In this document: positions 7,283 to 55,355 of the stretch, one piece after another | Numbering within the stretch: position 1 is the first letter of the stretch | Layout of the letters: every line of letters begins with the position of its first letter | From: a virus | IMG/VR virus record: IMGVR_UViG_3300025438_000010 | Span: 1-64,000 of that record | Reading direction: 5' to 3' (one strand) | Length of the DNA: 64,000 nucleotides | The notes under the pieces: generated by a model | What the model saw: only the letters and a program-made list of their open reading frames with translations | What the model was told of the DNA's origin: nothing | Databases searched by the model: none | Position numbers and translations under genes: made by a program

Positions 7283-7301
7283 TGTACAAGTTTATCATTT
7301 G

Positions 7302-7374
7302 CTGGCTACCCTGGACTCGAACCAGGAACATTTCGGTTAACAGCCGAACGCTCTGCCAATTGAGCTAGTAGCCA
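7302..7374 (-). tRNA. tRNA-Asn(GTT)
   Basis: Cloverleaf: acceptor TGGCTAC/GTAGCCA, anticodon arm TTCGG-CTGTTAA-CCGAA, T-loop TTCGAGT; CCA not encoded. Confidence 0.95.
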
Positions 7375-7378
7375 TTAG

Positions 7379-7452
7379 AGCCTCCTGTCAGATTCGAACT
7401 GACGACTTCCACTTTACAAGAGTGGCACTCTGACCAACTGAGTTAAGGAGGC
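7379..7452 (-). tRNA. tRNA-Thr(TGT)
   Basis: Acceptor GCCTCCT/AGGAGGC, anticodon arm CCACT-CTTGTAA-AGTGG, T-loop TTCGAAT. Confidence 0.95.
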
Positions 7453-15598: not shown

Positions 15599-16507
15599 AT
15601 GTTAGATTCTTTAGAAAGTACACCCGAAGACGAGGATACTGAGCCAGCTCACGATACTCCTGTAGATTTACGGCCTGACCTCTCCGAGATCGGCCTGAAC
15701 GAAATGGAAAAAGGTGTCGTTGAGGATACCTATGACAACCGTAGCGCTCTGCGTCGAGCAAAATTCACTTGGGATCCGGTCTACTCCCAGAACGGCACGC
15801 CCACTGGGTTGATAGCGGCCCGCTCTCCAGAACAACTTAAGGAACGGAGACTCCTTTCTCTCGTTGAGAAGAAGCCTCTCCTAGTAGATCCTTCTAATGT
15901 CAACGGTGACTACCTCACAGGCCTGGATCTTTTGGTAGATGAGGAAGCTTCTAAGCTCTCCCCACCGTGGGTTATCGCCTCAACGCGGGCCTGGTTGAAG
16001 GAGCAAGACAACGGCGGGCCTGCTTCCCCTACTCGTGCCCCGCTCGCTCACCCGCACCGCTGTATTCGAGTTAAGTCTGACGGTGTGCGCTGCATGCTGT
16101 GGGGATCCGGAAGGATCAAAGACGGTGGGCTATGCCGTATGCACTTGAAGTCGGCCCGGAAACCCGGCGAGGACGTAGAACGCGCCCGCCGTAAGCTTAT
16201 GCAGTCCGCACCTTACGCGGTAGACGTTCTTGAAGAGTTGATGGAGAATGCTGCTCTTGAGCAGGTACGCCTGAAAGCCTCAACGGAGATCCTAGACCGA
16301 GCCGGAGTACGAGCTGGGATGGATATCGGCGTGGAGATAGGGCTTATGGACGCCCGTAGCCCTGCTCAGATCGTAGCTGAAAGACTTTCACGGCTTGCAG
16401 AAGGAGCCAACGCTCTTCAAGCACGGCTTGCTCATCAAGAAGAAGAAGAAGTAGTAGAAGCAGAAGTAGTTAAGGAAGAGAAATCTGATGACACAACAGA
16501 TAGCTGA
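15599..16507 (+). CDS. possible terminase small subunit
   Basis: RC...DG.RC...CRMH Zn-like motif; VRLKASTEILDRAG helix. Confidence 0.4.
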   Translation: MLDSLESTPEDEDTEPAHDTPVDLRPDLSEIGLNEMEKGVVEDTYDNRSALRRAKFTWDPVYSQNGTPTGLIAARSPEQLKERRLLSLVEKKPLLVDPSNVNGDYLTGLDLLVDEEASKLSPPWVIASTRAWLKEQDNGGPASPTRAPLAHPHRCIRVKSDGVRCMLWGSGRIKDGGLCRMHLKSARKPGEDVERARRKLMQSAPYAVDVLEELMENAALEQVRLKASTEILDRAGVRAGMDIGVEIGLMDARSPAQIVAERLSRLAEGANALQARLAHQEEEEVVEAEVVKEEKSDDTTDS

Positions 16508-16699
16508 TCAAGCGGCCCGGCTTGCAGACAGACTCTTTGAGGATATACAGCTGGCAAGGACACGAGACGAGCACATTCGTGTAACGGCTAGGGCTAATGA
16601 GGCTCGCGAGCTAGCCAACGGCTTGCAATTATTAATTAAATAAAATACTATGCTATTTTATTAATTAATAATTTGTTTGTCAAATCGACAGGAGAGGAC

Positions 16700-16798
16700 A
16701 TGAACGAACCTACAACCTGCTTCTGGTGCGATCACCCGCTGAATTCCGAGGGGATCTGCTCTCACTGCGCCAGCGATTTGCGTATACTAGATAAGTAG
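16700..16798 (+). CDS. 32-aa CxxC-CxxC peptide
   Basis: GGAGAGG SD; MNEPTTCFWC...CSHC. Confidence 0.5.
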   Translation: MNEPTTCFWCDHPLNSEGICSHCASDLRILDK

Positions 16799-16919
16799 TG
16801 TAGAAATAGACACTACCTGCACCGAAGGGGCTTACCTCCTTTCACCCTAGCGGTGTAGGGCTCAGAGAAGAGCTACTGAAGGCCCCCCGTTCTTCCCAGC
16901 GGGGGGTCTTCTTCTTTTA
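16795..16919 (+). ncRNA. candidate sRNA with anti-SD loop
   Basis: TATACT -10 at 16783; four hairpins; loop UUACCUCCUUUC; terminator with U-tail. Confidence 0.55.
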
Positions 16920-17021
16920 TTGCCAGGATTCAGAAGATCTGTCGAGACTTTCCGTGAGACGGAAAAGGTCCCCGTACAAAGTTAATTTTAAACTTGTACG
17001 GAAATGTGCTATAAATGAACT

Positions 17022-17168
17022 ATGACAGAAACAGAAGCACTACCCAGCATATTCGCAATATTTATTGTTGTTCCTACATTGGTATCCGCTTTCGTAATCA
17101 TTTGGTTCTTTGGCCGTGCACAGATGAAGGCGGATTACTACCCCGAGCACTGGAAAGATGTTCCGTAA
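17022..17168 (+). CDS. 48-aa single-TM protein
   Basis: MTETEALPSIFAIFIVV...; its stop is the TAA of the first CCGTAAAA box. Confidence 0.6.
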   Translation: MTETEALPSIFAIFIVVPTLVSAFVIIWFFGRAQMKADYYPEHWKDVP

Positions 17169-17224
17169 AAAAATTTAACCGGGTGCTATATAATAAAAAC
17201 ACGACGGCCAGAAAGGAGAAAAAA

Positions 17225-17584
17225 ATGGCTACCACATATGAAGGGAAGGAATTCATTTTTACCTTCCCCGGTTCAGAGACAAACTACGATCTCAACATCT
17301 GGGATCGCAGGGGGTACGAGACCGAATACGCAGAGGAGGGCTGGGCTATCAGTGTCTATGAGATCCCATACATCGGCTCACCGTATGGCTCAGGCGAGTT
17401 CCGTGAGGACCTCAGCTTTGACCTCACCCCAGAAGAAGCCAAGAGCCTAACCCTGGGATGGGATCCGGCGCTCGGAGGGGACTACTGCCCGGACTCCGAC
17501 TTCTGGCTTGATGTTCAGGGGTTCATGGACACCTACACGAACATCCCGGCTCGAGTACGCGAACTACTCGAGAACCTGCCCTAG
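17225..17584 (+). CDS. hypothetical acidic protein (cassette 1)
   Basis: start corrected to MATTY after GAAAGGAG. Confidence 0.75.
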   Translation: MATTYEGKEFIFTFPGSETNYDLNIWDRRGYETEYAEEGWAISVYEIPYIGSPYGSGEFREDLSFDLTPEEAKSLTLGWDPALGGDYCPDSDFWLDVQGFMDTYTNIPARVRELLENLP

Positions 17585-17665
17585 ATTGCTGGCGAGGACC
17601 TCCGTAAAAAACGACGGGGGTCCTTGCTACAATACAAATACAACGGTCCGAGAAAAGGAGAAAAA

Positions 17666-17908
17666 ATGGACTACATGTTAGAACAACCCGAGCCCCAGGC
17701 TATTCGGGAAGAAAAAAGAAACCTAGTTTGTTTCAACGACGACTGCGCCATGTTTGAGTCCGAGGTAGAGATTCTTGTAGAGATTGAATACTGGAGTGAC
17801 ACCGAGGCACGGTTCGATTGGGAGTGCGACTCCTGCCGAACAATGTACGATCGAGAGTTCAATCCGATGGATGACATCGATTGGGATTCCTACTACGAAG
17901 GGAGATAG
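17666..17908 (+). CDS. acidic Zn-ribbon-like protein (cassette 2)
   Basis: AAGGAG SD; two Cys pairs. Confidence 0.7.
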   Translation: MDYMLEQPEPQAIREEKRNLVCFNDDCAMFESEVEILVEIEYWSDTEARFDWECDSCRTMYDREFNPMDDIDWDSYYEGR

Positions 17909-17910
17909 TG

Positions 17911-18105
17911 ATGTATAACGGCAGGTATGGCACTGTTGAGTGCCTGGTGTGTGGGAAAGATATAGAGCCAGGATCGGAGGAGGCCGTAAGCCTTCACGAC
18001 GGCGAGGATATCTCACCCGTTGCTCACCTATTCAGCTGGATGTGCGACAGCGATTGCGTTGAAGAATACGCCGACAACAATGAGTCAAGCTACTTCGAAG
18101 GGTAG
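17911..18105 (+). CDS. acidic Cys-containing protein
   Basis: CLVCG...CDSDC. Confidence 0.65.
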   Translation: MYNGRYGTVECLVCGKDIEPGSEEAVSLHDGEDISPVAHLFSWMCDSDCVEEYADNNESSYFEG

Positions 18106-18184
18106 CTACCACGAGGGGCCTGTCCGTAAAAAACGGATGGGCCTCTCGCTATAATAAAAATGTCCGAACGAAAAGGAGAAAAAA

Positions 18185-18709
18185 ATGGGATTGGACATGT
18201 ATCTATCAGTACGGAAATACGTCAGTGCAATTGATTGGAGAGGAGTTGACAAGCTTGGCCCGGAAGAGTCAATCAGCGATTACCCCAACCTTGACTACGC
18301 CGAGGTCACGGAACGGCTTGGATTGAAGCCTTTCATCGCAAATGCGGCACACTCCGGCATGAACGTGACCGCAACCGCTGTCTACTGGAGAAAAGCTAAT
18401 GCCATCCACAAGTGGTTCGTAGACAACCTCGCTGACGGCGTGGATGACTGCAGACCGCTGTGGGTTTCAACCGACCACCTGAAGGAGTTGTTTTTTAACG
18501 TGTGCGAGGTATTAGCTAGCAATAAAGACCCACAGGTAGCCGAGGAGGTTCTTCCATCAGAAGACGGGTTCTTCTTTGGCGACACCAGTTACGGTGAGGC
18601 GTACTGGGATGACCTGGAATACACACAGAAAGCCCTAGAAAAAATCTTGACTCTGGCTGAGTCGGATGAGGGTAAGGCTGTGGACTTCGAGTATCAAGCC
18701 TCCTGGTAG
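18185..18709 (+). CDS. conserved phage protein (MGLDMY/YWRKAN/GFFFG family)
   Basis: motifs recognisable from a widespread phage family. Confidence 0.8.
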   Translation: MGLDMYLSVRKYVSAIDWRGVDKLGPEESISDYPNLDYAEVTERLGLKPFIANAAHSGMNVTATAVYWRKANAIHKWFVDNLADGVDDCRPLWVSTDHLKELFFNVCEVLASNKDPQVAEEVLPSEDGFFFGDTSYGEAYWDDLEYTQKALEKILTLAESDEGKAVDFEYQASW

Positions 18710-18822
18710 GCCTCAAGCGGAAAGACCCTCGGTGAAAGCCGGGGGTTTTTCTGTTTCCGTAAAAAAACAACAATAGGGGTTATATAATAAAAACATAACG
18801 ACGGAGCTACGAAAGGAGAATC

Positions 18823-19539
18823 ATGAAGCTCAAGCGTTCCAAGGACCGGAAGGTCACCAATCTAGTCACACCGAACGGGAAGGCCCCGTCCATTGCTAAC
18901 ACCTTTGGACTACCAGCAGGTAAGGCCTACTCATGCCCCGGCGCGACGTCCATCTGTGAGAGTGTCTGCTACGCGGGCAAGCTCGAGAAGGTATACAAGA
19001 ACGTCAAGGCGGTCCTGGTACACAACTGGGAACTGCTGAAGGACGCGGATCTCGATGAGATGCGACGACTACTCACTGAGATGGTCGACGACTTCATCAC
19101 GGACTGCAACCGACGGCAAGCGCCTAAGGACTTCAGAATCCACTGGGACGGCGACTTCTTCTCGGACACCTACGCTATGGCGTGGAGGATGACGATGGAG
19201 TCACGGCCCGAGGTCAACTTCTGGGTCTACACCCGGACCATGAGTGCGGCACGGTTGCTCAAAGGCACATCCAATCTGTCCCTGTACTTCTCGGCAGACA
19301 ACGAGAACATGCCGATAGCGCTCACGTTACGGCGTGAAGGGATACTGCTTGCCTACCTGGCGGATACTTTTCAGGAAGGTCAGGCACGGATGAAAGAGGC
19401 AACGGGCAAGCCCGGAGCCAAATGCCCGGAGAACACTAAGCAGATCCCATTGATTAGTGTCAACGGCTCGGCATGCATGGTGTGCCAGCTATGTCCTAAG
19501 GGCAAGGCTGACATCGTATTCAGTGCCAGCAAGTCCTAG
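18823..19539 (+). CDS. Gp88-like protein
   Basis: CPGATSIC..CYA, FRIHWDGDF, WVYTR. Confidence 0.75.
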   Translation: MKLKRSKDRKVTNLVTPNGKAPSIANTFGLPAGKAYSCPGATSICESVCYAGKLEKVYKNVKAVLVHNWELLKDADLDEMRRLLTEMVDDFITDCNRRQAPKDFRIHWDGDFFSDTYAMAWRMTMESRPEVNFWVYTRTMSAARLLKGTSNLSLYFSADNENMPIALTLRREGILLAYLADTFQEGQARMKEATGKPGAKCPENTKQIPLISVNGSACMVCQLCPKGKADIVFSASKS

Positions 19540-19633
19540 CGGAGTCCCCCGGTGAGAGCCGGGGGTACTTCCGTAAAAAATAAAATTGCTTGGAGATATA
19601 ATAAAGATAGCAACGACGAAAAGGAGCAAGACA

Positions 19634-19855
19634 ATGGAAACAACTGAGATGACAAATTTCTACCGGAAGCACTACGGAGTTTTGGTAGGGAGAAAAATAA
19701 TCGCAATACGATCAATGTACCCCGAAGAGATGAAACTTTTTATGTGGTACGGAGACCCCGGTGTGGTTATTGAGACCGACAAGGGACTGATTGTCCCCTC
19801 GAGCGACCCGGAAGGCAACTCTCCCGGACAGCTACTGCTAGACGGATTCGAGTAG
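19634..19855 (+). CDS. hypothetical protein
   Basis: AAGGAG SD; PSSDPEGN. Confidence 0.7.
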   Translation: METTEMTNFYRKHYGVLVGRKIIAIRSMYPEEMKLFMWYGDPGVVIETDKGLIVPSSDPEGNSPGQLLLDGFE

Positions 19856-19941
19856 TCCGTAAAAAATTGGGGAGCCTCTCGCTATAATAAAAACAGATAG
19901 CGAGGGGCTTCCCTCAAAAAAAACGACAAAAGGAGAATGAC

Positions 19942-20586
19942 ATGCCTAACTGGGTATCTAATCAAATAAATATCACGGGACCTAAAGAAGAACTCGATAG
20001 GCTCCAAAAGCAAGCCGCAACGCCTTACCAGACTAAATCGTCTGTACTCACCGAAGACGGATTCGAGTGGGTGGACGCAGAGAACCAGGAGGAACTTTCA
20101 TTCTGGAACTTTGTCAGTCCCGACGAATCAATCCTGGAGGAGTATTTTGGCCCGGAGGCTAACAAGACTCTGGAGCAAGCGCTTCGACACGAGACCAACC
20201 ACTGGTACGACTGGAATGTCCGCAACTGGGGAGTCAAGTGGGACGCCAGCTATGTGGGAGTGACCCAAGTGTCTGACACGGAGATTGCCTACACCTTTGA
20301 GACACCGTGGGACGCAGTCGTTCCGGTATTCCTGAAGATGGTGGAGGAGTATCCTGCCCTTGACTTCGAGTACCGATATCTGGAGGAGCAAGGCTGGGGA
20401 GGGGAGCTTCACGCCTCAGAAGGTATCTACTGGATAATGGACGAGTGGGAGATTCCGGAGACACACGAAGACCGCGTGGACAAAATTGGCTACTGCCACT
20501 GTGCGGAGGTCGGCACGCGCGAGGAGGACATCAAGTACTTGTTCGACGATTGTCCCCCAAAAATGGTCTTGATGGCCAGCAAGTAA
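19942..20586 (+). CDS. YubB/DUF1281 ferredoxin-like domain protein
   Basis: MPNWVSN, WYDWNVRNWGVKW, FETPW. Confidence 0.8.
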   Translation: MPNWVSNQINITGPKEELDRLQKQAATPYQTKSSVLTEDGFEWVDAENQEELSFWNFVSPDESILEEYFGPEANKTLEQALRHETNHWYDWNVRNWGVKWDASYVGVTQVSDTEIAYTFETPWDAVVPVFLKMVEEYPALDFEYRYLEEQGWGGELHASEGIYWIMDEWEIPETHEDRVDKIGYCHCAEVGTREEDIKYLFDDCPPKMVLMASK

Positions 20587-20643
20587 GATACTGGAGGGGG
20601 CGAGTAACGGCTCGCCCTCTCTAGTCCTAGAAAAGGAAGAAAA

Positions 20644-20919
20644 ATGGAAGAAGAAACAGAAACTATCGGCGAGGTCGAAAGAACTCTTCACTACTTCGCT
20701 GATGACGGTAACTATGGGTCTGCGGACGGACTTACGATCATGGAGTCTACCCATTGGGACGAAATTGATTGGTCAATTATTGAGGGAGCACCCGAGCACT
20801 TCCGCCCAATGGTTGCCCGGTTGATTACAGAAAGCTATGAACCGGACGCTAATGAACAAGCCCTACGCGCTGAGTTTGCTAAGTACGGGGTTGACATTAG
20901 TGACTATGAGAAAGACTAG
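20644..20919 (+). CDS. acidic hypothetical protein
   Basis: AAGGAAG SD. Confidence 0.7.
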   Translation: MEEETETIGEVERTLHYFADDGNYGSADGLTIMESTHWDEIDWSIIEGAPEHFRPMVARLITESYEPDANEQALRAEFAKYGVDISDYEKD

Positions 20920-21102
20920 TAAGTAACTGGGGGGAATTGACTTGGGGGTTTCCCGTCGTTTCCTCCACGGTGTTGGTGGTCACCGTTATCAAAATCACTA
21001 TTTTAGTTTCCGTAAAAAATGTCTGAGGTGGGAGATACAATAAAGACAACACAGCAACAAGCCCGTTGTTGTGAAAAAATGACGGAGTGAAAGGAGATAG
21101 CA

Positions 21103-21453
21103 ATGGCTATCGTCAGAAAGCGCAAGGTAAGCAAGGTTACGATTGTCGAGGACACCAAGACGGTCACCAAGACCGCCGTGGAACTTACGGACAGCGAGCA
21201 GGAAATCCTGGAGTCGTTTCTGAAGGCACGAACTGAAGAAACCGAAGCCAAGAAGGAGAAGGAACGCCTCTCCGCCCTGGTGAAGGACATTATCGGTGAC
21301 GCTCAGGTCGCTCTGGTGAACGGCGAAGTCCGAGTGGAGTTGCTCCGCTACCCACGAGTGACAATCGACTCGAAGTTGTTGTTCGAGAGTTTCACCGAAG
21401 CCTACGAAGCCACGGCACGCCAGTCCGTGGTCACCCGTATCCAAGCCAAGTAA
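21103..21453 (+). CDS. coiled-coil hypothetical protein
   Basis: GAAAGGAG SD. Confidence 0.75.
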   Translation: MAIVRKRKVSKVTIVEDTKTVTKTAVELTDSEQEILESFLKARTEETEAKKEKERLSALVKDIIGDAQVALVNGEVRVELLRYPRVTIDSKLLFESFTEAYEATARQSVVTRIQAK

Positions 21454-21509
21454 CACACGGGTCGGCTCCCCTCCGGGGGAGTCGGCTCACCCTAACGAAA
21501 GGAAACAAA

Positions 21510-21791
21510 ATGGGAAACATGACGGCACGAGAATTAGCGTTTCTAGGTAATGAAGGATTAGGACTAGACACCGCTATCTCATTCCACCTTACGAGCAATC
21601 ACTTTCCGCCGGTACCGACGATTATGGTCGGCGCGTGTGTCGAAGCGATAGACAACGCTAATGAAGGCGAGTGGGACAAGTTAGTCCAACTACCAGAAGG
21701 TGTGGGGTACCGGGGAAGGACTGTCGCACCGACAAAAGCGATCATTGAGCAACACCACCTTGACTCATTCCTAGACGACACCGAGGACTGA
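21510..21791 (+). CDS. hypothetical protein
   Basis: HLTSNHFPP...HHL; SD. Confidence 0.75.
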   Translation: MGNMTARELAFLGNEGLGLDTAISFHLTSNHFPPVPTIMVGACVEAIDNANEGEWDKLVQLPEGVGYRGRTVAPTKAIIEQHHLDSFLDDTED

Positions 21792-21903
21792 GCGACAAGG
21801 AAGCCCCTGAGAAATCAGGGGTTTCTTTGGTTCCGTAAAAAACTGAAGCGCACGGTTATACAATAGAAGCATACAGGGACAAGCCCTGGAAAAGGAGAAC
21901 GAC

Positions 21904-22245
21904 ATGAGTGATGTAGTAATTATCAAAACTGACGGTACTGTCGAAGCCCACAAGTTGTCCGGGGATTCAACCGCCGACTTCAACCTCATCAGAAACGCCG
22001 TCGAGGGCTTTGTGGAGCGAGTTCCTATCTCTGACTACACCCAACTGATGTGGGTGAACGAGGAGGGCAAGTTGCGTGGACTCCCCCACAACCCGAAGGC
22101 TCAGACCCTCTGGGACTCACAATGGGGAGCCGGAACTGACCGGATTGTGGGAAATGTGGTCATCACGGGTGACGACACCGAAGAAGGCGAAACAGGCACT
22201 CTCCCCGAAGGAGAAGCCGAACGGCTAGTGGCGCTACTGTCCTAG
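21904..22245 (+). CDS. DUF3846 domain protein
   Basis: VNEEGKLRGLPHN..A; IVGNVVITG. Confidence 0.8.
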   Translation: MSDVVIIKTDGTVEAHKLSGDSTADFNLIRNAVEGFVERVPISDYTQLMWVNEEGKLRGLPHNPKAQTLWDSQWGAGTDRIVGNVVITGDDTEEGETGTLPEGEAERLVALLS

Positions 22246-22378
22246 CCGACACGGAGAAGCCCCTGCTACGGCAGGGGTTTCTTTGTTCCGTAAAAAATGT
22301 AAAGGCGTGGCTATATAATAAAACTACTAGCCCAAACGGGTTAGTAAGACGGGAAACATAAAACGAAAGGGGCCAGAA

Positions 22379-22819
22379 ATGGCTAGAAGTATCGCAGTCC
22401 GTATCAAGACGGAGAAGGTTATAGCCTCGCTAGAAGCCTCACTTGAGAAGATGCAGCACGACAAGGAGAACGAGAAGCCACTCAGGGAGAAGTACGACAA
22501 GGAGTTGGAGGCTTGGACTCAGAAGGTCAAGAAGTACGCTCTCACCATGCCCAAGCCTAAGGACATGGACATGGTCGCGGTTGGGGGAGGCTACTACCAC
22601 CGTATTGCCTCGGACAACCCTGAGGATATTGCTGTTCAAATAGTCCTTGCGGTTCCGGCTAATAAGGTTCCAGAACGCCCCGAGGCTCCTGACGCTGTTG
22701 CGGCTTGGCAGTACCGTGATGCGGTGGAGAACATTGAGAACGCGCTCCGGTTGCTCCGTATGACCGACCAAGAAGAAATCAGCACGGGTACTTACAGCAA
22801 AATTGCTCAGTACCTCTAA
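22379..22819 (+). CDS. hypothetical protein
   Basis: 146 aa in cassette 9. Confidence 0.75.
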   Translation: MARSIAVRIKTEKVIASLEASLEKMQHDKENEKPLREKYDKELEAWTQKVKKYALTMPKPKDMDMVAVGGGYYHRIASDNPEDIAVQIVLAVPANKVPERPEAPDAVAAWQYRDAVENIENALRLLRMTDQEEISTGTYSKIAQYL

Positions 22820-22942
22820 CGGCTGGACAGCCCCTCACTACGGTGGGGGTTGTTCCCGTAAAAAATATCGGGCACGGTCTATACAATAAAGACATACCGA
22901 CACCGAGTAAAAGGCTGGGTGCGGTCTACTGAGGAGGTAGTA

Positions 22943-23272
22943 ATGATTATCGAGAGTGCGGTCAGGGATAGTTCCCTGGAGTTGTACCTGGACAATGCTC
23001 ACGGCATTGCCTTTGACACCTGCCACAAGATTTATGTCTTGATGGACAGCGAGCAGATGGGTCTGATGCGGGAGTATGAGTATGACCCTTTGATTTCTTC
23101 AGACGAGATGACACCTGCCGAGATGTACGAAACGGTGGCTGGCTGGTACGAGGAGTCTTGCCAACTGCGGTTTATCCAAGCCGTCACCACAGCCCCAGAT
23201 AACCCCAACGAGGGCTATGTAGATATAGTTCCCCAGTTCCTACTGTTCAACGAGGACGAGGACGAGGACTGA
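22943..23272 (+). CDS. acidic hypothetical protein
   Basis: GAGGAGG SD; FDTCHKIY. Confidence 0.75.
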   Translation: MIIESAVRDSSLELYLDNAHGIAFDTCHKIYVLMDSEQMGLMREYEYDPLISSDEMTPAEMYETVAGWYEESCQLRFIQAVTTAPDNPNEGYVDIVPQFLLFNEDEDED

Positions 23273-23366
23273 TAAGGAGAGTGCCCCTCTACGGAGGGGT
23301 ACTTTCCGTAAAAAGTGGCGTGGTGCGCCGATACAATAAAGACACGGACAGCAAAGGAGGACAATT

Positions 23367-23549
23367 ATGTCTGAAAAAGTGACGGTGGCACACCTGCCTA
23401 CCTGTAACTTCTGTACCAACCTGGCAGGATATGACGCTAGGACGGTGTTAGGCGCGTGGGCTTACCTATGCGAGGAACATTTCTACCCCATGACCGAGGG
23501 ACGGCTTGGGACTGGCTACGGTCAGAAACTAATCCTGGAGGAGGCATGA
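23367..23549 (+). CDS. small Zn-binding phage protein
   Basis: CNFC...YDART..WAYLC..H. Confidence 0.75.
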   Translation: MSEKVTVAHLPTCNFCTNLAGYDARTVLGAWAYLCEEHFYPMTEGRLGTGYGQKLILEEA

Positions 23550-23692
23550 TGGCAATAGTAGTTAGGCGCTACGGCGTTACACCAACACGCGCCGGTCTGG
23601 TATCGACCTGCGTGGAGTGTGGGAGAGTATTCGACCTCACCGATGAAACTGACGCTAACGAGTTAGCCTACGGACACGACTGCGAGGTGTGA
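23546..23692 (+). CDS. small Zn-binding protein
   Basis: CVEC...GHDC. Confidence 0.65.
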   Translation: MMAIVVRRYGVTPTRAGLVSTCVECGRVFDLTDETDANELAYGHDCEV

Positions 23693-23790
23693 GTGACACG
23701 GCACGCCCCCTCTCCGGAGGGGGTGCTGTCGTTGTCCCGTAAAAAATTGGGAGTAGTGGGAATAAAATAAAGGTATCAACGGGAGGAGGA

Positions 23791-23967
23791 ATGATGATAT
23801 GTCAATACTGTAATGAGAACCCTGTCCGGGAAGGCTGGGCTATCACCTGCGCCGTGTGTACTTTCATGTGTACACGGTGCAAGGAGGACACACCCTACGA
23901 ATTAGGAGTGTCCTGGGATAGGTACTGTGACCCCTGCGGTGTTGCGGTGGCTTCTGTCCCATTCTAA
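23791..23967 (+). CDS. Cys-rich small protein
   Basis: GGAGGAGG SD; 4 CxxC. Confidence 0.6.
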   Translation: MMICQYCNENPVREGWAITCAVCTFMCTRCKEDTPYELGVSWDRYCDPCGVAVASVPF

Positions 23968-24086
23968 GCGACTCCCCCTCTCCGGAGGGGGTTTCGCCGT
24001 TCCGTAAAAAACATGGAGGGGGGCTTATACAATAAAGACATGACGGGGGGACACTAGGGCTTTCCGCATAACCTGAGGAGGACACC

Positions 24087-24425
24087 ATGGGTGACCGTTC
24101 GAATATCGCGATTGTCTACCACACCGGAGAAACTATCTACCTGTACGGGCATTGGCTCGGGCATGAAAGTCAGAGGATTGTCGCACGCGCAATTTCTGAG
24201 GGCAGGCGAATGGAAGACGAGTCTTATTTCGCTCGGATTCTTTTTAGCAAAATGATTGCTGAGGACATTGCCGGCGAAACCGGCTTCGGTATCGCACCGT
24301 ATGAGGTAGACCAGGACTACGGCAATCCCACAGTTACCGTGGATTTTCGTGACCACACGGTGATGCACGACAACTGGGATAACGCTGTCCCGTTCGCTGA
24401 CTACCCCCGGCTAGTACTGGTATAG
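24087..24425 (+). CDS. hypothetical phage protein
   Basis: MGDRSNI...YLYGHW.G. Confidence 0.75.
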   Translation: MGDRSNIAIVYHTGETIYLYGHWLGHESQRIVARAISEGRRMEDESYFARILFSKMIAEDIAGETGFGIAPYEVDQDYGNPTVTVDFRDHTVMHDNWDNAVPFADYPRLVLV

Positions 24426-24539
24426 CCTGACGGGAGCCCCTCACTTCGGTGAGGGGCTACCCCGTTCCGTAAAAAATTGGCTACGGCATGGATACAATAA
24501 AGACAACAGCAGGGGAAATACCCCTACGGGAGGAGAGTC

Positions 24540-24875
24540 ATGGATACGGCTACGGTAGTAGGATTGGTGGCTACTACACCACGATATGTAGAAACTATTG
24601 ACGGGAAGCGTGTTTTATCTTTTCGTCTGGCGTGCCCTCAGAAGGGTTACGACAGGGACACCGGCGAGTGGGTGCCTAAAGACACAAACTGGTACACGGT
24701 GCTGTGCTTTGACGATGTAGCAAGCGACTGTGTCGACAGGGTTGGCAAGGGGAGTCGGATTGTTGTAGTTGGTAATCTGATGAAAGTCACAGATTGGTCT
24801 GCTGACAGCCCCTCGGGTACTTCGGTAGAAATACACGCCCACACCCTGGGTAACCTGGGGAAGAACATATCCTAA
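24540..24875 (+). CDS. ssb: single-stranded DNA-binding protein (OB-fold, no acidic tail)
   Basis: TVVG.VAT.P, SFRLA, T.WYTV, KG.RIVV.G. Confidence 0.75.
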   Translation: MDTATVVGLVATTPRYVETIDGKRVLSFRLACPQKGYDRDTGEWVPKDTNWYTVLCFDDVASDCVDRVGKGSRIVVVGNLMKVTDWSADSPSGTSVEIHAHTLGNLGKNIS

Positions 24876-24967
24876 CGGTAACCCCCTCTCCGGAGGGGGA
24901 TTACCCGTCTCCGTAAAAAATCACACGGTGCTTCGGTACAATAAAGATATGGAAAGGAGGTCAGCAA

Positions 24968-25171
24968 ATGTCTGACATAAAATACCCTGAGGTGGAAGTA
25001 GAACTGGTAGGACAGGACGGCAACGCGTTCGCTGTTATGGCAAGAGTGAGCAAGGCTCTCCGCCGGGCTAGTGTGGCTCAGCAGGAGATTGACGAGTACC
25101 TCAAGGAATCTACCTCTGGGGACTACGACCACCTAGTGGCAACCGCCACCCGGTGGGTTACGGTTCACTAA
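24968..25171 (+). CDS. conserved phage small protein
   Basis: LVGQDGNAFA...SGDYDHL. Confidence 0.8.
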   Translation: MSDIKYPEVEVELVGQDGNAFAVMARVSKALRRASVAQQEIDEYLKESTSGDYDHLVATATRWVTVH

Positions 25172-25299
25172 CCCCACACGGCACTAGCCCCTCTTCGGAG
25201 GGGTTATTGTCGTCCGTAAAAAATGCGGTGAGGACACCATACAATAAAGACATAGACAAGGAGGCACTAGAACTCTTTGCTATAACCTGAGGAGGAACT

Positions 25300-25521
25300 A
25301 TGTACGAGGTCGAGACCAGAATGGTCATAACCACACCACGGTGTCCCGAGTGCGGAGAGGCTGGCATTCTCCAAATCCCGGCAGACGGCTACGACCGCTG
25401 GGCAGAGGGTGCGCTTATTCAAGAAGCCTTTCCCAACCTTTCCCTAGCCCTTAGGGAACAACTGAAGACCGGCTATCACGGCGCTTGCTGGGATACGGCT
25501 TTTGGACCCGTCCCTTTTTAG
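25300..25521 (+). CDS. small Zn-binding protein
   Basis: CPECG...LIQEAFP...HGACW. Confidence 0.75.
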   Translation: MYEVETRMVITTPRCPECGEAGILQIPADGYDRWAEGALIQEAFPNLSLALREQLKTGYHGACWDTAFGPVPF

Positions 25522-25650
25522 CCCCACACGGCAATTCCCCGGCTTAGGCTGGGGTTTTGTCGTCCCGTAAAAAATGAGGGAACACGGGAATATAATAAAG
25601 ACATAGACACCAAGCAAAAGGCTTAGTGTCACTACCCTGGAGGAGTACCT

Positions 25651-25926
25651 ATGAGTACACGGGCAAAGGTAAGGGCAAAAGTCCTTGCAGATGGTGGGAC
25701 CTTTGAGGAGGGCTACACCGGCTGGGCAAGCGACACCTACTGGGTCGAGGTAACACTCTCCGATTCAGAAACGGTGTGGGCTTGTGAGGCGACAGAGTAC
25801 GACAGCCTCTGGACCCTGAGGGTCGAGCAAGAGGATAGCGAAACTCGCGCTCAGATGTGGAGCTATGTCTGGGACAAGGTACGCTTTCCCGTAGTTCGCC
25901 GTGATAGCTTCTCACAAGCTGTCTAA
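25651..25926 (+). CDS. hypothetical protein
   Basis: GGAGGAG SD. Confidence 0.7.
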   Translation: MSTRAKVRAKVLADGGTFEEGYTGWASDTYWVEVTLSDSETVWACEATEYDSLWTLRVEQEDSETRAQMWSYVWDKVRFPVVRRDSFSQAV

Positions 25927-26051
25927 CCCCCAAGCCCCTGTCAGAAATGGCAGGGGTTCCTGGGGTGCCGTAAAAAAATTCTATCGAAGGTCGTACAATA
26001 AAGACAACGGCACACGGGGTACGCCTGTGAGCCACTACCTGAGGAGGCACT

Positions 26052-26165
26052 ATGAGTGACAACCCTTTCGACAACCTGGACATTATCAACCAGGACGCGA
26101 TTGACGCGATGGATGACGAAACCGTCAAGACGGTTTGGGAAATCCTTACCAAAGCCGGCTACTAG
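26052..26165 (+). CDS. 37-aa acidic peptide
   Basis: GAGGAGG SD; MSDNPFDNLDIIN... Confidence 0.65.
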   Translation: MSDNPFDNLDIINQDAIDAMDDETVKTVWEILTKAGY

Positions 26166-26222
26166 GCGAGAGAGGGCGGGGAAACCCGCTCTCTCCCCCT
26201 ACCCCAACAGAAAGAGGAAAGA

Positions 26223-26450
26223 ATGTTAGAAAGAATTACACGGGTAAATTACTACTGGAAAGACACGGTAATCCCTGGAGATACTGACGCACAAGTAGTT
26301 ATCCTGAACGATAGCGACAAGTACGAACAAATGTCTAATGATGGAAGTTTCGATGAGCGTATCTGGTTCTACTTTCAGAATGAAGATGAGTTCCAACGAG
26401 CCTTTGACCCCGCTAACACGGAGTTCGAGTTCGTCCTCACCGGAGGATAG
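26223..26450 (+). CDS. acidic hypothetical protein
   Basis: 75 aa; SD. Confidence 0.7.
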   Translation: MLERITRVNYYWKDTVIPGDTDAQVVILNDSDKYEQMSNDGSFDERIWFYFQNEDEFQRAFDPANTEFEFVLTGG

Positions 26451-26591
26451 GTTTTCCTCCCAGGGAAAAAGCACAAGCCCCGCCATTTCTGGCGGGGTTT
26501 TGTGTGTCCGTAAAAAGTTAGGGGACACGGGGATACAATAAAAACATCAGCACGGAACAAGCGGTGTTCTGTGTCTAACCCTGGAGGAACT

Positions 26592-26747
26592 ATGTATTAC
26601 TTTGTTACGGTTATAGAAAAAGCCTCACGAGAGATTGTGGCGACTTATCTTGACGCCTTTGAGTCTGACGCTCACGAGAGGGCTCAGACCATTGGAACCA
26701 TTGAAGGCTACGCGGTGTTCATTACTAGTGGTGACCCACTCTCATAG
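26592..26747 (+). CDS. 51-aa hypothetical protein
   Basis: GGAGG SD in cassette 19. Confidence 0.65.
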   Translation: MYYFVTVIEKASREIVATYLDAFESDAHERAQTIGTIEGYAVFITSGDPLS

Positions 26748-26873
26748 CAACTAGGGGAGCCCCAGCTTAGGCTGGGGTTTCTGCTGTCCGTAAAATTCGA
26801 TCGACACGGACGATACAATAAAAGCACAGACAGGGACACAAGGTTTCTGTCCTAACCCTGGAGGATAGCAATT

Positions 26874-27062
26874 ATGCGTTCACACGATGGATTGGCAGAA
26901 TGGGCTTTGGAACAAGCCACCACACGGGAGCAAATTGCTCACCACATCGAGCGTTTGCGCGATGATGCCCTGATGATTCACGACTACCCCGAGCAGGCTA
27001 TCGCCTTTATCGAGGACGAACTCCGTGAGATTCGGGTGCTACTGGCTAGGGATTCAGACTAG
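26874..27062 (+). CDS. hypothetical helical protein
   Basis: cassette 20. Confidence 0.7.
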   Translation: MRSHDGLAEWALEQATTREQIAHHIERLRDDALMIHDYPEQAIAFIEDELREIRVLLARDSD

Positions 27063-40146: not shown

Positions 40147-41198
40147 TGGCAGACCCAAAAGAGGTATACGCAGCTCTTCACAAGACTGAAGAGCTTCTTG
40201 CCGAGATGCGCAAAGAGGCCCGGGAGCTTTCTACTAAGAAAACGGGAGCAGGAACCCCGGCTCCTAAGAAAGATCGGGTCAAGGGGTCTAAGAAAAACCC
40301 CAAAGGTTCTGCATCCGGGGATAAAAAAATTACTTTTGACGCCAAAACTGAGACAGCCATTAAAAACAAGGTTGAAGAGCACAACAAGACCGCTAAAAAG
40401 GGCCGTAAGGCCACCACAAGGATGCTCAAGGCAGTCTACCGCCGTGGAGCTGGTGCCTACAGTACCTCACACCGCCCCGGAAAGACTCGCAATCAGTGGG
40501 CAATGGCTCGAGTAAACGCTTTCCTCAAGCTTTTGCGCTCTGGAAAGCCCTCCAAGGCTGCTTACACTCAGGATAACGACCTTCTTCCCGCTGCACACCC
40601 TAAGTCTTCAAAGAAAAGCGCTTCTACCCTTACTGCATCGGGGCTGATACCCGAAGAGCAAGCCTTAGCAGATGCTTTGGCGGAGGTTGTAGCAGTCCAC
40701 GGCAAGTTTGACCAAGACGGTGACGGCGTTTGGGCGGGCTACACTCCCGCAAACGAAAACGAAGACGCCGCAATTGGCGTTAAGTGTTCAAACTGCGTTT
40801 TTTACCAAGGCGGAGACCAGTGCGGAATCATCAGTCTCAGTGTTGAACCAGAGGGCAAGTGCCGCTTTGCTGTTTTGCCCGAGGGGGCCGTCCAGGGAGA
40901 CAAAGTCCCCCTTCGAGACCCCGAGTCTCTCGATCTTTTGCTTGCCTCTGCGGACGCTTCCGGCGAGTTGGCCATCTCACTAAAGGACTATTCAGAGTAT
41001 AATTCTGTAGAAGAAACAGTCATCGCTTTAACAGAGGCTTCGGGTATGGGATACGACGCAGAATTTGCCATTAAGGCGGCTTGGATGCGTGCAGTTAGAA
41101 ACGGAGAAGACCCGTTTGAGCGGGCAAAGCAGCTTGCGCTAAACCCCGCTGGTAGCCTTGATGTACACCTTCTTCCTGCAGACTGGGAGGACAGGTAG
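40146..41198 (+). CDS. head-associated multidomain protein
   Basis: basic VYRRGAGAY...QWAMARVNAFL domain plus 4-Cys CSNCVFY domain. Confidence 0.65.
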   Translation: MADPKEVYAALHKTEELLAEMRKEARELSTKKTGAGTPAPKKDRVKGSKKNPKGSASGDKKITFDAKTETAIKNKVEEHNKTAKKGRKATTRMLKAVYRRGAGAYSTSHRPGKTRNQWAMARVNAFLKLLRSGKPSKAAYTQDNDLLPAAHPKSSKKSASTLTASGLIPEEQALADALAEVVAVHGKFDQDGDGVWAGYTPANENEDAAIGVKCSNCVFYQGGDQCGIISLSVEPEGKCRFAVLPEGAVQGDKVPLRDPESLDLLLASADASGELAISLKDYSEYNSVEETVIALTEASGMGYDAEFAIKAAWMRAVRNGEDPFERAKQLALNPAGSLDVHLLPADWEDR

Positions 41199-44100
41199 TG
41201 TCTGATAATATTCCCGTCTCCCCCCTTAACTATCACGGTTCCTTCGAGGACGAGAATAATCAAATTATTGACGCGGCTCTGGAGTTTGCACATGATGCCA
41301 ACCAGGGCTATACGGGCACCCGGGTTGCCACAGACGGAGTAGTTCTCGACGTTGCCAGGCGGACTCTCCGGGAACTAGACAACCATCCTTTCTCTGTTCG
41401 TAAACATCTTACTTTGACAGATGTTTCTCACTTTATTGTTTTGCTTCAGAAAGACAAGGCTGTTACCGCCTCGGTCCAGCACACCGATCTTCTCCCCGTT
41501 GCCCACCCTCGGTCTTCCGCAGAGCACGAGCTGAGTAACCAAGATCTGTTCGCCGCCAAAGCCCGCTGGATTGCCGACGACCCGTCTATTAAAGACGAGG
41601 AAACTCGTGCCATGGTTGCCTCGATGCTTACGGCTCCTGAGGGCTCTGCTGAGCGCGAATATTACGCAACCAGGCTTGAGAACAGCCCCCAGGGGGCTAT
41701 TCCTGTAAGAGCCTTGATTGCGGCGTTTACCGGCGGCCTAGGCGCTAACAAGGGTTACTGGATGCGCCAGCGTCGTGACCGTAAGGGTCGCTTTGCTTTC
41801 GAGGGCGGTGGCCTTAGTGTATTGGTCAAGGGCAGCACAGGTGCTGTTCGCAGGCTGACTGGTCGTACTGTTGGTCCGGGTGTTGGTGAAAAAAATGACT
41901 ATTTTGATATGGAAGTTTCTCCCGGAAGCCTTGTCCGTGTTCCAGCATCTGCAACCGAGTCTTCTAAAGCGTACTTGCCTAGCCCAAACGCCCCGGACGG
42001 ATACAGCCCTCAAAAGGCTCGGGTCCAAGCTGGCGACCCCGTCATCGACGAAAAAGACTTAATTCGTCCTGATGCTCCCAGTGGCTTTAATAAAGTTGCC
42101 GACGGAGCTGATGTCGACTCTCCCGAGGAAAAAGAGTACTATGGCGAAGACGCCGACTTTGGTACAGTGTACGAAGACGAAAATTATACTGTCCGGCAGT
42201 TTGACTCAGGGTCTTCCCCCGTTGCCCGAGACAATTTTAACTTGGCTCAGGAAGCCGAGCAGTCTTGTGGGCTCACCGCAGCCGGTGAGGGCGATAACTG
42301 TCCGATTAAAACTAGTGGCGCTGGTGAAAACGGAAGCTTTGACCCAGAGAAGCCGGTTTTGTTTGTCAGCCGTACAGACGACGCGAGCAATCCTGACATC
42401 TTTGCGGCCTCCCAGAGCTGGGCGGACACCCTAGACTACATTCGTCAGGATGAGCCTCGGTACGAAGCCGAAGATAGACCAGCCCCTTACATCAAACTTG
42501 GTGACCCGAGTAGGCGGGATAACCTTGACCCCACTAGGCGCGAAGAGGGCCCACGCGGCCCCGATAATAGAAGAGTCGATCCACACGGCTTTATTATTCC
42601 GGATAAACCCGGCCTTATTGATGGCGGGGGAAGAGTAAGACCTGACGGAACAAGAGAGTTGCTCGAGGGGCGTCGGCCGGACAGCTATCCGATGCGCATC
42701 CCCCTCCCGGGCCCCTGGAACCCCCGCATTCCCGGCACTGGGCGAAGGCCCCGCCCCGGAGGAGGCCGCGCTCCTGGCGGAGGCGGACGCTCTCCCGGAA
42801 CAGGACGCCGCTGGGGCTCCAACGGCCCTAACGAGGGCCACGCTCCCTACCCAATCCCTGGGCGTCGTGTCTACCCCGGCGAAATTGCGGACATGCGCGT
42901 TGGATCAGAGATGGAGCAATATCTCGGAGGATTCCTTTCGACTCTCTTTGGAACAGCAAAAAAGCGACAGCTACGAAAAACTGGTGCTGACGAGTGGGTT
43001 GACCTGGAGACCGGAGAGACTTACACTAACGATCAAGTCTCAGAGATGGCCGCAACTAGTGGTAAAGATAGTTCTCCTTTTACGGGACTTGCGACAGGAC
43101 CCGAGGTACGCCCCGGAACATTTACTAAAATGATGTCAGGCTCGCTTTTTAGCGAGCTTCCCACCGGCAGTGAGCTTAATGATCACCTAAGACTTTTTAA
43201 CGTTATGACCCAGTTCCGCAAGGTTGGGTATAACCAGTGGCGTCGGTGGGACGGCAAAATCTTTACAGATGCTGAGGTGCAAAAAAAGAGCGGCACTATG
43301 CAGATTGACCGAGTTGGAGAATTTGGTCCTGGTAGACCCCCCGGTGGGGAAGTATCAGGAGAATCCTCTAAACCAAGACTCCCCAGAGGTCCACTGACCC
43401 CCGAAGAGCTGGCCGAGCTTCGCCCCGGATCCCTTATTTCTATACCTGGAGAAGACGATCAACCTCCTCGCTTCTTTGTAAAAGTAGGCGAAAACGACTG
43501 GCGCGAGATTGACCCAGAGAATTTTACGTCAGACCCTGCAGTTTCTTTCACTGATGAAGACATTCTCAACATGGGTAAGGACATTACTCTAGAGAAAGAG
43601 CCAGAGGCCTACGAACAGGGGCAACTAGGCATGCGTCCATCAGATCTTTCTCCTGAGGCCCTGGAAAACCTCCCCGAGGGCACAGTTGTAGGGACTTCAG
43701 ATGAAGAAATTGATAACCTCAACATTCCCCGGCAGCCCTATGCGACTGAAGAGGCGTACCAAGCAGCCCTAGAAGAAGCCAAAGAGTTTTACCGCCGCAA
43801 TAGGTGGCGTAAGCGTGGTCCCAACGAGTGGGTAAATGACTTTGGTGAGTTTGCTACAGACGCAGATATTGCAGACGGAAAGAAAACTCCTGGACTTATT
43901 ATCTCTCTCGGCGATGAGGTTAGCACCCCCGAAGGCTACTACGATTTAAATCGAGAAGAGCTTTACACGCCTACAGGCGGCGCAGAAGGGCAAACCTCAC
44001 CTGACTTCACCGATGACCCCGCAGAGCTGGCTCAACGTTTCTCAGAGGAAGAGCTGCAGGCAGCCCTTAAAGAAGCCCTCGAGAACCCCAACGGTTTTGG

Positions 44101-55070: not shown

Positions 55071-55355
55071 GTGAGTGATTCTCCTGAAGAAAAATTAACA
55101 GATCATATGTACATTATTTATGACGCTCCCACGGGTCAAGTCACCCAGGTTAAGTACGAAACAGCTGCGCACGGGCTGTGGACCAGAATTCAAGGGGAGT
55201 GGCGGGAATTAGCTTTAGAAGATGAGAGCGAAGATTTTATGGAGCGCAGAGAAATTGCTGGAAAAAACTACCTAGAAACTCGTGACTATTTTGACGACCA
55301 AACCGAGCAAAAGATACTTACCTACGAGCCAGAGTACAGGATGTGGTTTGCTTAA
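55071..55355 (+). CDS. hypothetical protein
   Basis: 94 aa; AAGGAG upstream. Confidence 0.6.
   Translation: MSDSPEEKLTDHMYIIYDAPTGQVTQVKYETAAHGLWTRIQGEWRELALEDESEDFMERREIAGKNYLETRDYFDDQTEQKILTYEPEYRMWFA

Follow-up and report, generated by a model that had tools for sequence, protein, structure and literature searches.

A hairpin in a 64-kb stretch of viral DNA (hereafter the window), whose open loop copies the 3' tail of 16S rRNA, belongs to a real, uncatalogued class that is sporadically distributed among phages. A hairpin of this kind, copying the 16S tail across unrelated phages, is absent from Rfam, and none was found in the literature searched. Judged from the sequence, a function as an RNA that pairs with Shine-Dalgarno (SD) leaders is plausible. 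The case for the class is carried by the recurrence of one and the same loop on unrelated stems in five independent contexts and by control scans with altered loops, and it has to be weighed against the absence of the loop from the only diverged syntenic relative found, a locus that we call L004.

Source and setting of the element

The window takes up the first 64 kb of a viral contig from IMG/VR that is 75.6 kb long and to which CheckV assigns a completeness of ~57%. The stretch was found in 20 sequencing runs, all of them salt-lake DNA metagenomes, and near-identical contigs are present in many salt-lake DNA metagenomes; in the salt lake the phage attains a contig depth of 40-90x. By its protein matches the virus is probably an uncultured actinophage; GP88 and DUF2637 are the Pfam matches among its proteins. 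Among named phages the closest by protein is Actinomycetia phage DSL-LC01 (freshwater, 129 kb), with 63% identity in a 302-aa protein that is gene 1 in large Microbacterium and Arthrobacter phages. At the homologous locus of DSL-LC01 an endolysin gene comes next and there is no comparable element, and among 50,697 phage records no named phage gave a DNA match to the region in either near or distant mode.

Several features of the surrounding DNA may be recorded here. Inside the gene for the 302-aa protein lies a GAA/GTA-rich low-complexity coding stretch (16434-16470), a run of Glu codons, which draws many unrelated metagenome contigs and so produces a spurious spike in depth. The late region holds two giant ORFs, 41198-54781 (4527 aa) and 55355-60145 (1596 aa). 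There is no tRNA or tmRNA cloverleaf at the element, the adjacent tRNA pair listed in Table 1 being all that ARAGORN and Rfam returned.

Table 1. Positions of the element, its flanking features and its best complementary site in the window.
Feature	Position	Strand	Remark
tRNA-Asn(GTT) and tRNA-Thr(TGT), adjacent	7301-7452	minus	ARAGORN / Rfam
AT-rich near-perfect palindrome, possible operator	16626..16675	none	overlaps putative P1
Putative P1, extended -10 TGCTATTTTA	16651..16660	+	motif
SD AGGAGAGG of the small ORF	16690..16697	+	
Gene for 32-aa zinc-ribbon microprotein (CxxC...CxxC)	16700..16798; stop TAG 16796-16798	+	SD-led, kept in L004
TATACT, -10 candidate of the first-pass annotation	16783-16788	+	codons 28-30 of the zinc-ribbon ORF
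Hairpin H1, arms GTAGTGT/ACACTAC	16795-16801/16810-16816	+	7 bp, 8-nt loop
Hairpin H2	16817..16858	+	8-bp lower stem, 2x2 internal loop, GGGG/CCCT clamp, 14-nt loop
H2 lower stem	16817-16824/16851-16858	+	
H2 upper stem GGGG/CCCT	16827-16830/16845-16848	+	
H2 open loop CUUACCUCCUUUCA, 14 nt	16831-16844	+	CUUA, a YUNR-type turn, then CCUCCUUUC
Hairpin H3, GGCTC/GAGCT	16859..16874	+	GCUC/GAGC core, 6-nt loop
Intrinsic terminator	16878-16889/16900-16911, U tail to 16918	+	12-14-bp GC stem
14-nt palindrome (CCGTACAAAGTTAA / TTAAACTTGTACGG) and P2 motif TGCTATAAAT	16972..17024	+	spacing conserved in L004
SD GAAAGGAGGT of the gene 24968-25171 (67 aa), the window's best complementary site	24952..24961	+	

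A structured region with an open 16S-like loop

A first-pass annotation of this DNA, made from the letters alone, had described here a TATACT hexamer, a series of hairpins, one of which displays the anti-SD motif, and a terminator with a U tail, and every one of these sequence features is in place. It overlooked that TATACT and the first bases of H1 fall within a 32-codon ORF, the stop codon of which is included in the 5' arm of H1. The region is non-coding, highly structured and terminator-ended: no ORF of at least 30 aa is found on either strand in 16799-17008, and the 137-nt stretch has a minimum free energy of -61.7 kcal/mol against -41.6 +/- 3.7 in shuffles (z = -5.44; none of 200 shuffles equalled it). 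The terminator has the make-up of an intrinsic one, with 14 pairs, nine of them GC, in 16878-16911, followed by TTCTTTTATT. Its own loop is CU-rich (UUCUUCCCAG), and it is one-directional, the U tail being present on the + strand only.

The motif ACCUCCUUUC is located in the 14-nt loop of H2, the bases of which are unpaired with a probability of 0.90-1.0 in the ensemble, both for the UTR alone and for the full putative transcript. The loop is thus accessible (>0.9 unpaired) and identical over 10 bases to the 16S 3' tail, as had been claimed. The extent of that identity can be put in terms of a known cut: MazF-mt11 cuts mycobacterial 16S rRNA between C and ACCU and thereby takes off its last 11 nt (PMC12274833), and the loop 10-mer at 16834-16843 is therefore the first ten of these bases. 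Within the window ACCTCCTTTC has two copies against 0.28 expected, one in the H2 loop on the + strand and the other as its complement, the SD GAAAGGAGGT at 24952. The first-pass annotation had also allowed that the minus-strand GAAAGGAGG might serve a translated ORF; in the window only a GTG 12 nt away with an 11-codon frame is available to it. In L016/L017, the other one tested of the five contexts described below, no minus-strand frame follows GAAAGGAGG.

The small zinc-ribbon ORF and the start of the transcript

On sequence grounds the 32-codon ORF looks real: it is kept in L004 at 64% identity and with its cysteines, and its start codon is ATG or GTG in the population. Salt-lake contigs carry two natural variants near the element, C>T at 16689, just 5' of the SD, and A>G at 16700, which changes the start of the ORF from ATG to GTG; among the same contigs there is none within the hairpin element. 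Upstream, the P1 motif is one of three clustered TGCTAT(A/T)4 copies (16651, 17007 and 17184), and transcription from it would start near 16666. The palindrome that it overlaps is AT-only and near-perfect when taken as 16626-16683, with arms of ~18-22 nt, and L004 has an AT-rich palindrome of different sequence at the same place. On the minus strand, a near-consensus sigma-70-type promoter (TTGACA, 17 nt, TAAAAT; 16683-16655) faces back into the upstream genes.

The first-pass annotation had taken TATACT for the promoter of a separate RNA, a claim that does not hold up well. The hexamer is surrounded by the coding sequence of a small ORF that is conserved, and at the homologous place L004 has no TANNNT hexamer. 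TATACT matches a bare TANNNT, not the array promoter consensus, as both the TGn extension and the CCGTAAAA box of the 19 array promoters are missing. Given the position of TATACT in that ORF and the missing box, the element is best read as the 3' UTR of an early transcript of ~250 nt. We consider an independent sRNA of ~125 nt, started from TATACT, unlikely, though with a prospect worth keeping in mind. A bare TANNNT hexamer can suffice for actinobacterial sigma-A promoters, for which reason an internal start at ~16795 has some standing, and TATACT ends 6 nt 5' of the first base of H1.

Recurrence of the hairpin in unrelated phages

The 21-mer that comprises the GGG clamp, a 15-nt loop and the closing CCC is matched exactly in two more viral and seven metagenome contigs, and together these represent five independent contexts: the window with its near-twin L199; L016/L017/L200/L201, at 56% GC; L202; L203; and L204/L205, at 66% GC. 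Beyond the 21-mer the sequences of the five contexts are unrelated, yet each adds 5-11 base pairs to the stem, an extension that a chance 21-mer match would reach (at least 5 pairs) ~0.7% of the time. A relaxed pattern, GGGG N2-5 ACCTCCTTT N1-4 CCC, gave 54 distinct sites, with ~15 lineages that have long stems and no opposite-strand ORF. In control scans of the same format, with one permuted and one mirrored 9-mer, stems of at least 9 pairs were found at 3 of 135 sites, as compared with 8 of 54 for this loop (Fisher p = 0.002), a moderate enrichment of long stems over control loops. A plain scan with the 14-mer loop turned up mostly ordinary SDs of opposite-strand genes and no new members.

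From five members we built a covariance model, R1, the class being defined by a GGG/CCC clamp, a G-free loop of 11-17 nt with ACCUCCUUU, and a variable, covarying outer stem. The hairpin at 16816-16859 of the window has all of these features and scores 29.8 bits (E = 1.4e-4); no match to the model came from 822 kb of unrelated viral DNA. Both sides change at 7 of the 10 pairs in the R1 alignment of 21 rows, in which 91.6% of cells are paired, against 65% when shuffled and at most 58% with the pairing slid. This covariation statistic is partly circular, because the rows were chosen for being hairpins, and the unbiased evidence of recurrence is that of the 21-mer contexts and the control scans. 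A second match to R1 in L189/L197 carries another loop and lies outside the family. Across one genome per species for 185,579 prokaryote species the motif is essentially absent; the two matches obtained are weak, lack stems and do not belong to the family. An Rfam search, which the first-pass annotation had proposed as a check, left the window and eight family loci without a match above threshold. On conservation of the loop, which the same annotation had made a condition of its reading, the outcome is divided: unrelated phages share the loop on stems that covary, an argument that the loop itself has a function, but L004 lacks it.

The family also has features of position and loop composition in common. 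In 13 of 15 lineages the hairpin has the same orientation as the genes that flank it, and it mostly lies 1-64 nt 3' of the stop codons of unrelated genes, those for a major head protein, RecT, terminase and a nucleotide-metabolism fusion among them. About half of the hairpins either precede a terminator or are one (window, L174, L134, L192 and L176); others stand 16-60 nt 5' of the next SD and start codon (L016, L173, L179, L166 and L153). The loops are G-free and pyrimidine-rich, and in 11 of 15 a YUNR sequence, the four bases that end in the A of ACCUCC, comes directly before CCUCC. YUNR is a U-turn motif that speeds pairing in antisense RNAs. Further CU-rich stretches are seen in L134 (CUCUCCUCUCCUC) and L203 (CCCUCCUCUCCC), between the anti-SD hairpin and a second hairpin or terminator, so that some members may carry more than one anti-SD element.

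A position 3' of genes is what one would also see for a passive 3'-end structure, in which H1-H3 and the terminator stabilise a short mRNA and stop transcription before the array, and the loop has no function. Stable hairpins 3' of genes are common in phages, the members of this family follow major head genes and other unrelated genes, and L004 has a structured UTR and terminator without the loop. We nevertheless think such a passive role unlikely. A loop of 14-15 nt weakens a stabiliser or terminator hairpin, and three more features speak against such a role: an identical 15-nt loop on unrelated stems in five contexts, long stems that are enriched over permuted and mirrored controls, and loops that are free of G and have a YUNR turn.

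The syntenic relative and the patchy distribution

L004 retains a structured UTR of ~140 nt with a strong terminator and, downstream of it and with identical spacing, the block of an operator-like palindrome, a TATAAAT promoter and a leaderless gene for 48 aa. Its UTR has no ACCUCCUUUC and no R1 match, and all that it displays in the way of loops is CU-rich, as in UUUCUCU. It follows that the hairpin has been inserted in a lineage-specific manner into a UTR that is itself conserved, and its absence from this relative counts against a conserved role in the clade. At 2330-2395 of L004 the terminator pairs a CU-rich UUUCUCUUUU with GGGAGG within its own apex, whereby SD-like and anti-SD-like stretches are sequestered together.

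Loci reached through either flanking gene tell of the same narrow distribution. Among 12 found via the 302-aa protein the zinc-ribbon unit is present only in L004 and the hairpin in none, and seven found via a 119-aa protein have different upstream genes and no hairpin. Such patchiness, which agrees with that seen in other phages, suggests, as far as sequence comparison goes, a small module that may have been gained, lost or re-invented.

The cassette array and the proposed mechanism

Past the terminator, the palindrome formed by CCGTACAAAGTTAA and TTAAACTTGTACGG abuts TGCTATAAAT, with an ATG 7 nt past the -10, and 17022-17168 is probably a leaderless gene for a hydrophobic membrane peptide of 48 aa. 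It is followed by an array of at least 19 cassettes (17100-27000; the first-pass annotation counted 28), in which CCGTAAAAAA, a spacer of ~16 nt and TATA(C/T)AATAAAGACA recur. L004 uses CCCCTAAAAAAA instead, which suggests a phage-specific upstream promoter box that may co-evolve with some recognition factor.

Nearly all array genes carry strong SDs complementary to the loop. Their leaders fall into two classes, ACGA(CGG)...GAAAGGAGAA in the cassettes at 17.2-22.4 kb and (TAA)CCTGAGGAGG at 22.9-29.5 kb, which may mark two temporal or regulatory groups, and the H2 loop is complementary to both over 7-10 bp. The leader at 17211 belongs to the first class and that at 24087 to the second. The complementary array SDs noted earlier are confirmed, with GAAAGGAG at 17211, 18811, 21089 and 24952. 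At the last of these the loop can form 10 contiguous base pairs, or 13 of 14 with flanks. This complementarity is unspecific, because by its very nature an anti-SD loop can pair with any SD, and in neither leader class is there a private extension beyond the generic GAAAGGAG(G) that would match the loop flanks. The earlier suggestion that such an RNA would spare leaderless phage genes fares poorly: only the gene at 17022 fits it, and almost all array genes are SD-led and would be the best targets. With a single gene that looks leaderless, the sparing idea has little to act on.

The reading that we tentatively favour, and to which we give somewhat less than an even chance, is that H2 serves as an antisense seed hairpin, the loop of which pairs with SD leaders and blocks 30S binding. 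A short early unit of ~250 nt would be transcribed from P1 at ~16651, comprising the zinc-ribbon ORF, H1-H3 and the terminator at 16878-16918. H2 would be its functional core, with the GC clamp keeping open a G-free pyrimidine loop in which a YUNR turn is followed by CCUCCUUUC, and this loop would act as a seed on purine-rich SD leaders of the form GAAAGGAG(G), so that the 30S subunit could not bind. The acting form might be the whole mRNA or a fragment derived from its 3' UTR and stabilised by the terminator hairpin. The likeliest targets would be those early cassettes of the phage itself that are SD-led, with host mRNAs as a further possibility, and the outcome would be that early translation is tuned or shut down. 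In this reading we infer that P1 is used, that the RNA pairs in vivo and which way the effect goes, as well as any processing. Stoichiometry counts against SD blocking, in that one RNA would face phage mRNAs in the dozens and host mRNAs in the thousands.

The same complementarity could be put to use in cis, the loop pairing with an SD on its own RNA, be it the 5' SD of the zinc-ribbon ORF or, in members without a terminator, that of the next gene, as a pseudoknot that couples or damps translation. There is precedent for the former in the icaR mRNA of Staphylococcus aureus, in which a 3'-UTR anti-SD motif, UCCCCUG, pairs with the mRNA's own 5' SD. The icaR motif resembles the present element in lying in the 3' UTR of a protein-coding mRNA, and differs in not being carried on a clamp hairpin. 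Self-pairing of that type is poorly matched in the window: the best duplex of the element with 16661-16710, formed with its own SD AGGAGAGG, reaches no more than -9.6 kcal/mol, a weak value at the 13th percentile of all window sites. For the next-gene version, L016, L173, L179, L166 and L153 each have, 16-60 nt downstream, an SD and start with 6-9 bp of complementarity to the loop, and the upstream stop codon is near enough for a terminating ribosome to melt the stem. In the window itself what comes next is a strong terminator, and the gene after it, which probably lacks a leader, is served by a promoter of its own. We accordingly rate a cis element as quite improbable.

The zinc-ribbon neighbour and the loop as a possible decoy

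A small Cys-rich, zinc-ribbon-like ORF adjoins the hairpin in 4 of ~16 lineages (window, L016, L153 and L174), against a crude background of ~0.4-0.8% of SD-led ORFs. One could take from this that the hairpin is the binding site of the adjacent protein, either for autoregulation or as part of a ribonucleoprotein, much as CcaF1 binds the CcsR RNAs that are made from its own 3' UTR (PMC8034643). The adjacency was observed post hoc, and we treat it as a lead and not as a finding. The four peptides have no detectable homology, three of the four fit the CxxC...CxxC screen (that of L016 does not), most family members are without a zinc-ribbon neighbour, and L004 keeps the peptide but not the loop. 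A protein-binding site would, on our analysis, be distinctly improbable.

Least probable of all, and by our reckoning very much so, is that the loop mimics the 16S tail as a decoy titrating a factor that recognises the anti-SD, such as a MazF-type abortive-infection endoribonuclease: the ten-base identity would suit it, and Actinobacteria do have toxins by which precisely this tail is cut off (PMC12274833), but it is weakened because the CACCU site of MazF-mt11 is absent (the loop has UACCU, with U at that place in most family loops), no toxin or defence context is seen, and SD pairing is the simpler reading.

Comparison with known anti-SD RNAs

The closest parallel to H2 as an SD-pairing hairpin is found in the cuckoo/CcsR1-4 RNAs of Alphaproteobacteria (Rfam ar14 group; PMC8034643, PMC4615179), which likewise display anti-SD hairpin loops. 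Their source is the 3' UTR of a gene for a small protein, and they act by SD occlusion (PMC8034643); like the element, they are terminator-ended. They have two hairpins per RNA with CCUCCUCCC loops, whereas here there is one CCUCCUUUC loop and the terminator loop reads UUCUUCCC, and their neighbour is a DUF1127 protein, in place of which we find a zinc-ribbon ORF; the setting here is a phage, and there are no tandem copies. The ar14 model (RF02344) is the best Rfam match, at a sub-threshold 24.4 bits against a gathering score of 58.8 (E = 0.013 in a 451-nt search).

A second comparison is with the 6C RNA (RF01066), which occurs in Actinobacteria, the presumed host phylum, and has two terminal hairpins, as here. 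The C-rich hairpin loops of 6C pair with G-rich mRNA sites without Hfq. Its model gives 23.9 bits against a gathering score of 47 (E = 0.49) and covers H3 and the terminator only. Moreover, 6C has two loops with at least six C each, and those of the element are CU-mixed. The sub-threshold resemblance to both ar14 and 6C is thus weak at the level of sequence.

Phages themselves provide a third case in the c4 antisense RNA of P1 and P7 (RF01695), a phage RNA whose loops, like the one proposed here, pair with phage ribosome-binding regions. Its targets are specific sequences within a single operon; it is no generic copy of the 16S tail, and cmscan returned no RF01695 match to the element at the gathering threshold or at E <= 10. 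In Firmicutes, the sRNAs RsaE/RoxS and LhrC occlude SDs by means of UCCC or CU-rich loops; as compared with the element they are chromosomal and host-encoded, their motifs are shorter, and there is no sequence or model match. The action proposed for H2 would be that of CcsR/cuckoo, 6C, LhrC, RsaE and phage c4, though by the membership tests of these families it falls outside each of them.

Implications

RNAs that occlude ribosome-binding sites with CU-rich loops are already known from bacteria (CcsR, 6C, RsaE and LhrC) and from one phage system (c4). A broader proposal is that diverse, unrelated phages have either acquired independently or exchanged a compact hairpin module, consisting of the GC clamp, the U-turn and CCUCCUUUC, that copies the 16S tail as a general anti-RBS RNA, possibly together with a zinc-ribbon RNA-binding protein, and that would reprogram initiation during infection or else divert anti-SD-targeting nucleases of the host as a decoy; we regard this as rather improbable.

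What the hairpin means depends on which of these readings holds. Should the loop turn out to be functionless, 16S-like loops in the terminator-type hairpins of phages would be no evidence of regulation. If the adjacency of zinc-ribbon ORFs holds, it would point to a new small RNA-protein pair. If, on the other hand, the pairing with SDs is true, the hairpin would offer an easily transferable means of synthetic translational control for Gram-positive and actinobacterial hosts, and for the phage itself it would be a very cheap device, of ~45 nt, with which to time early genes or to stop host translation.
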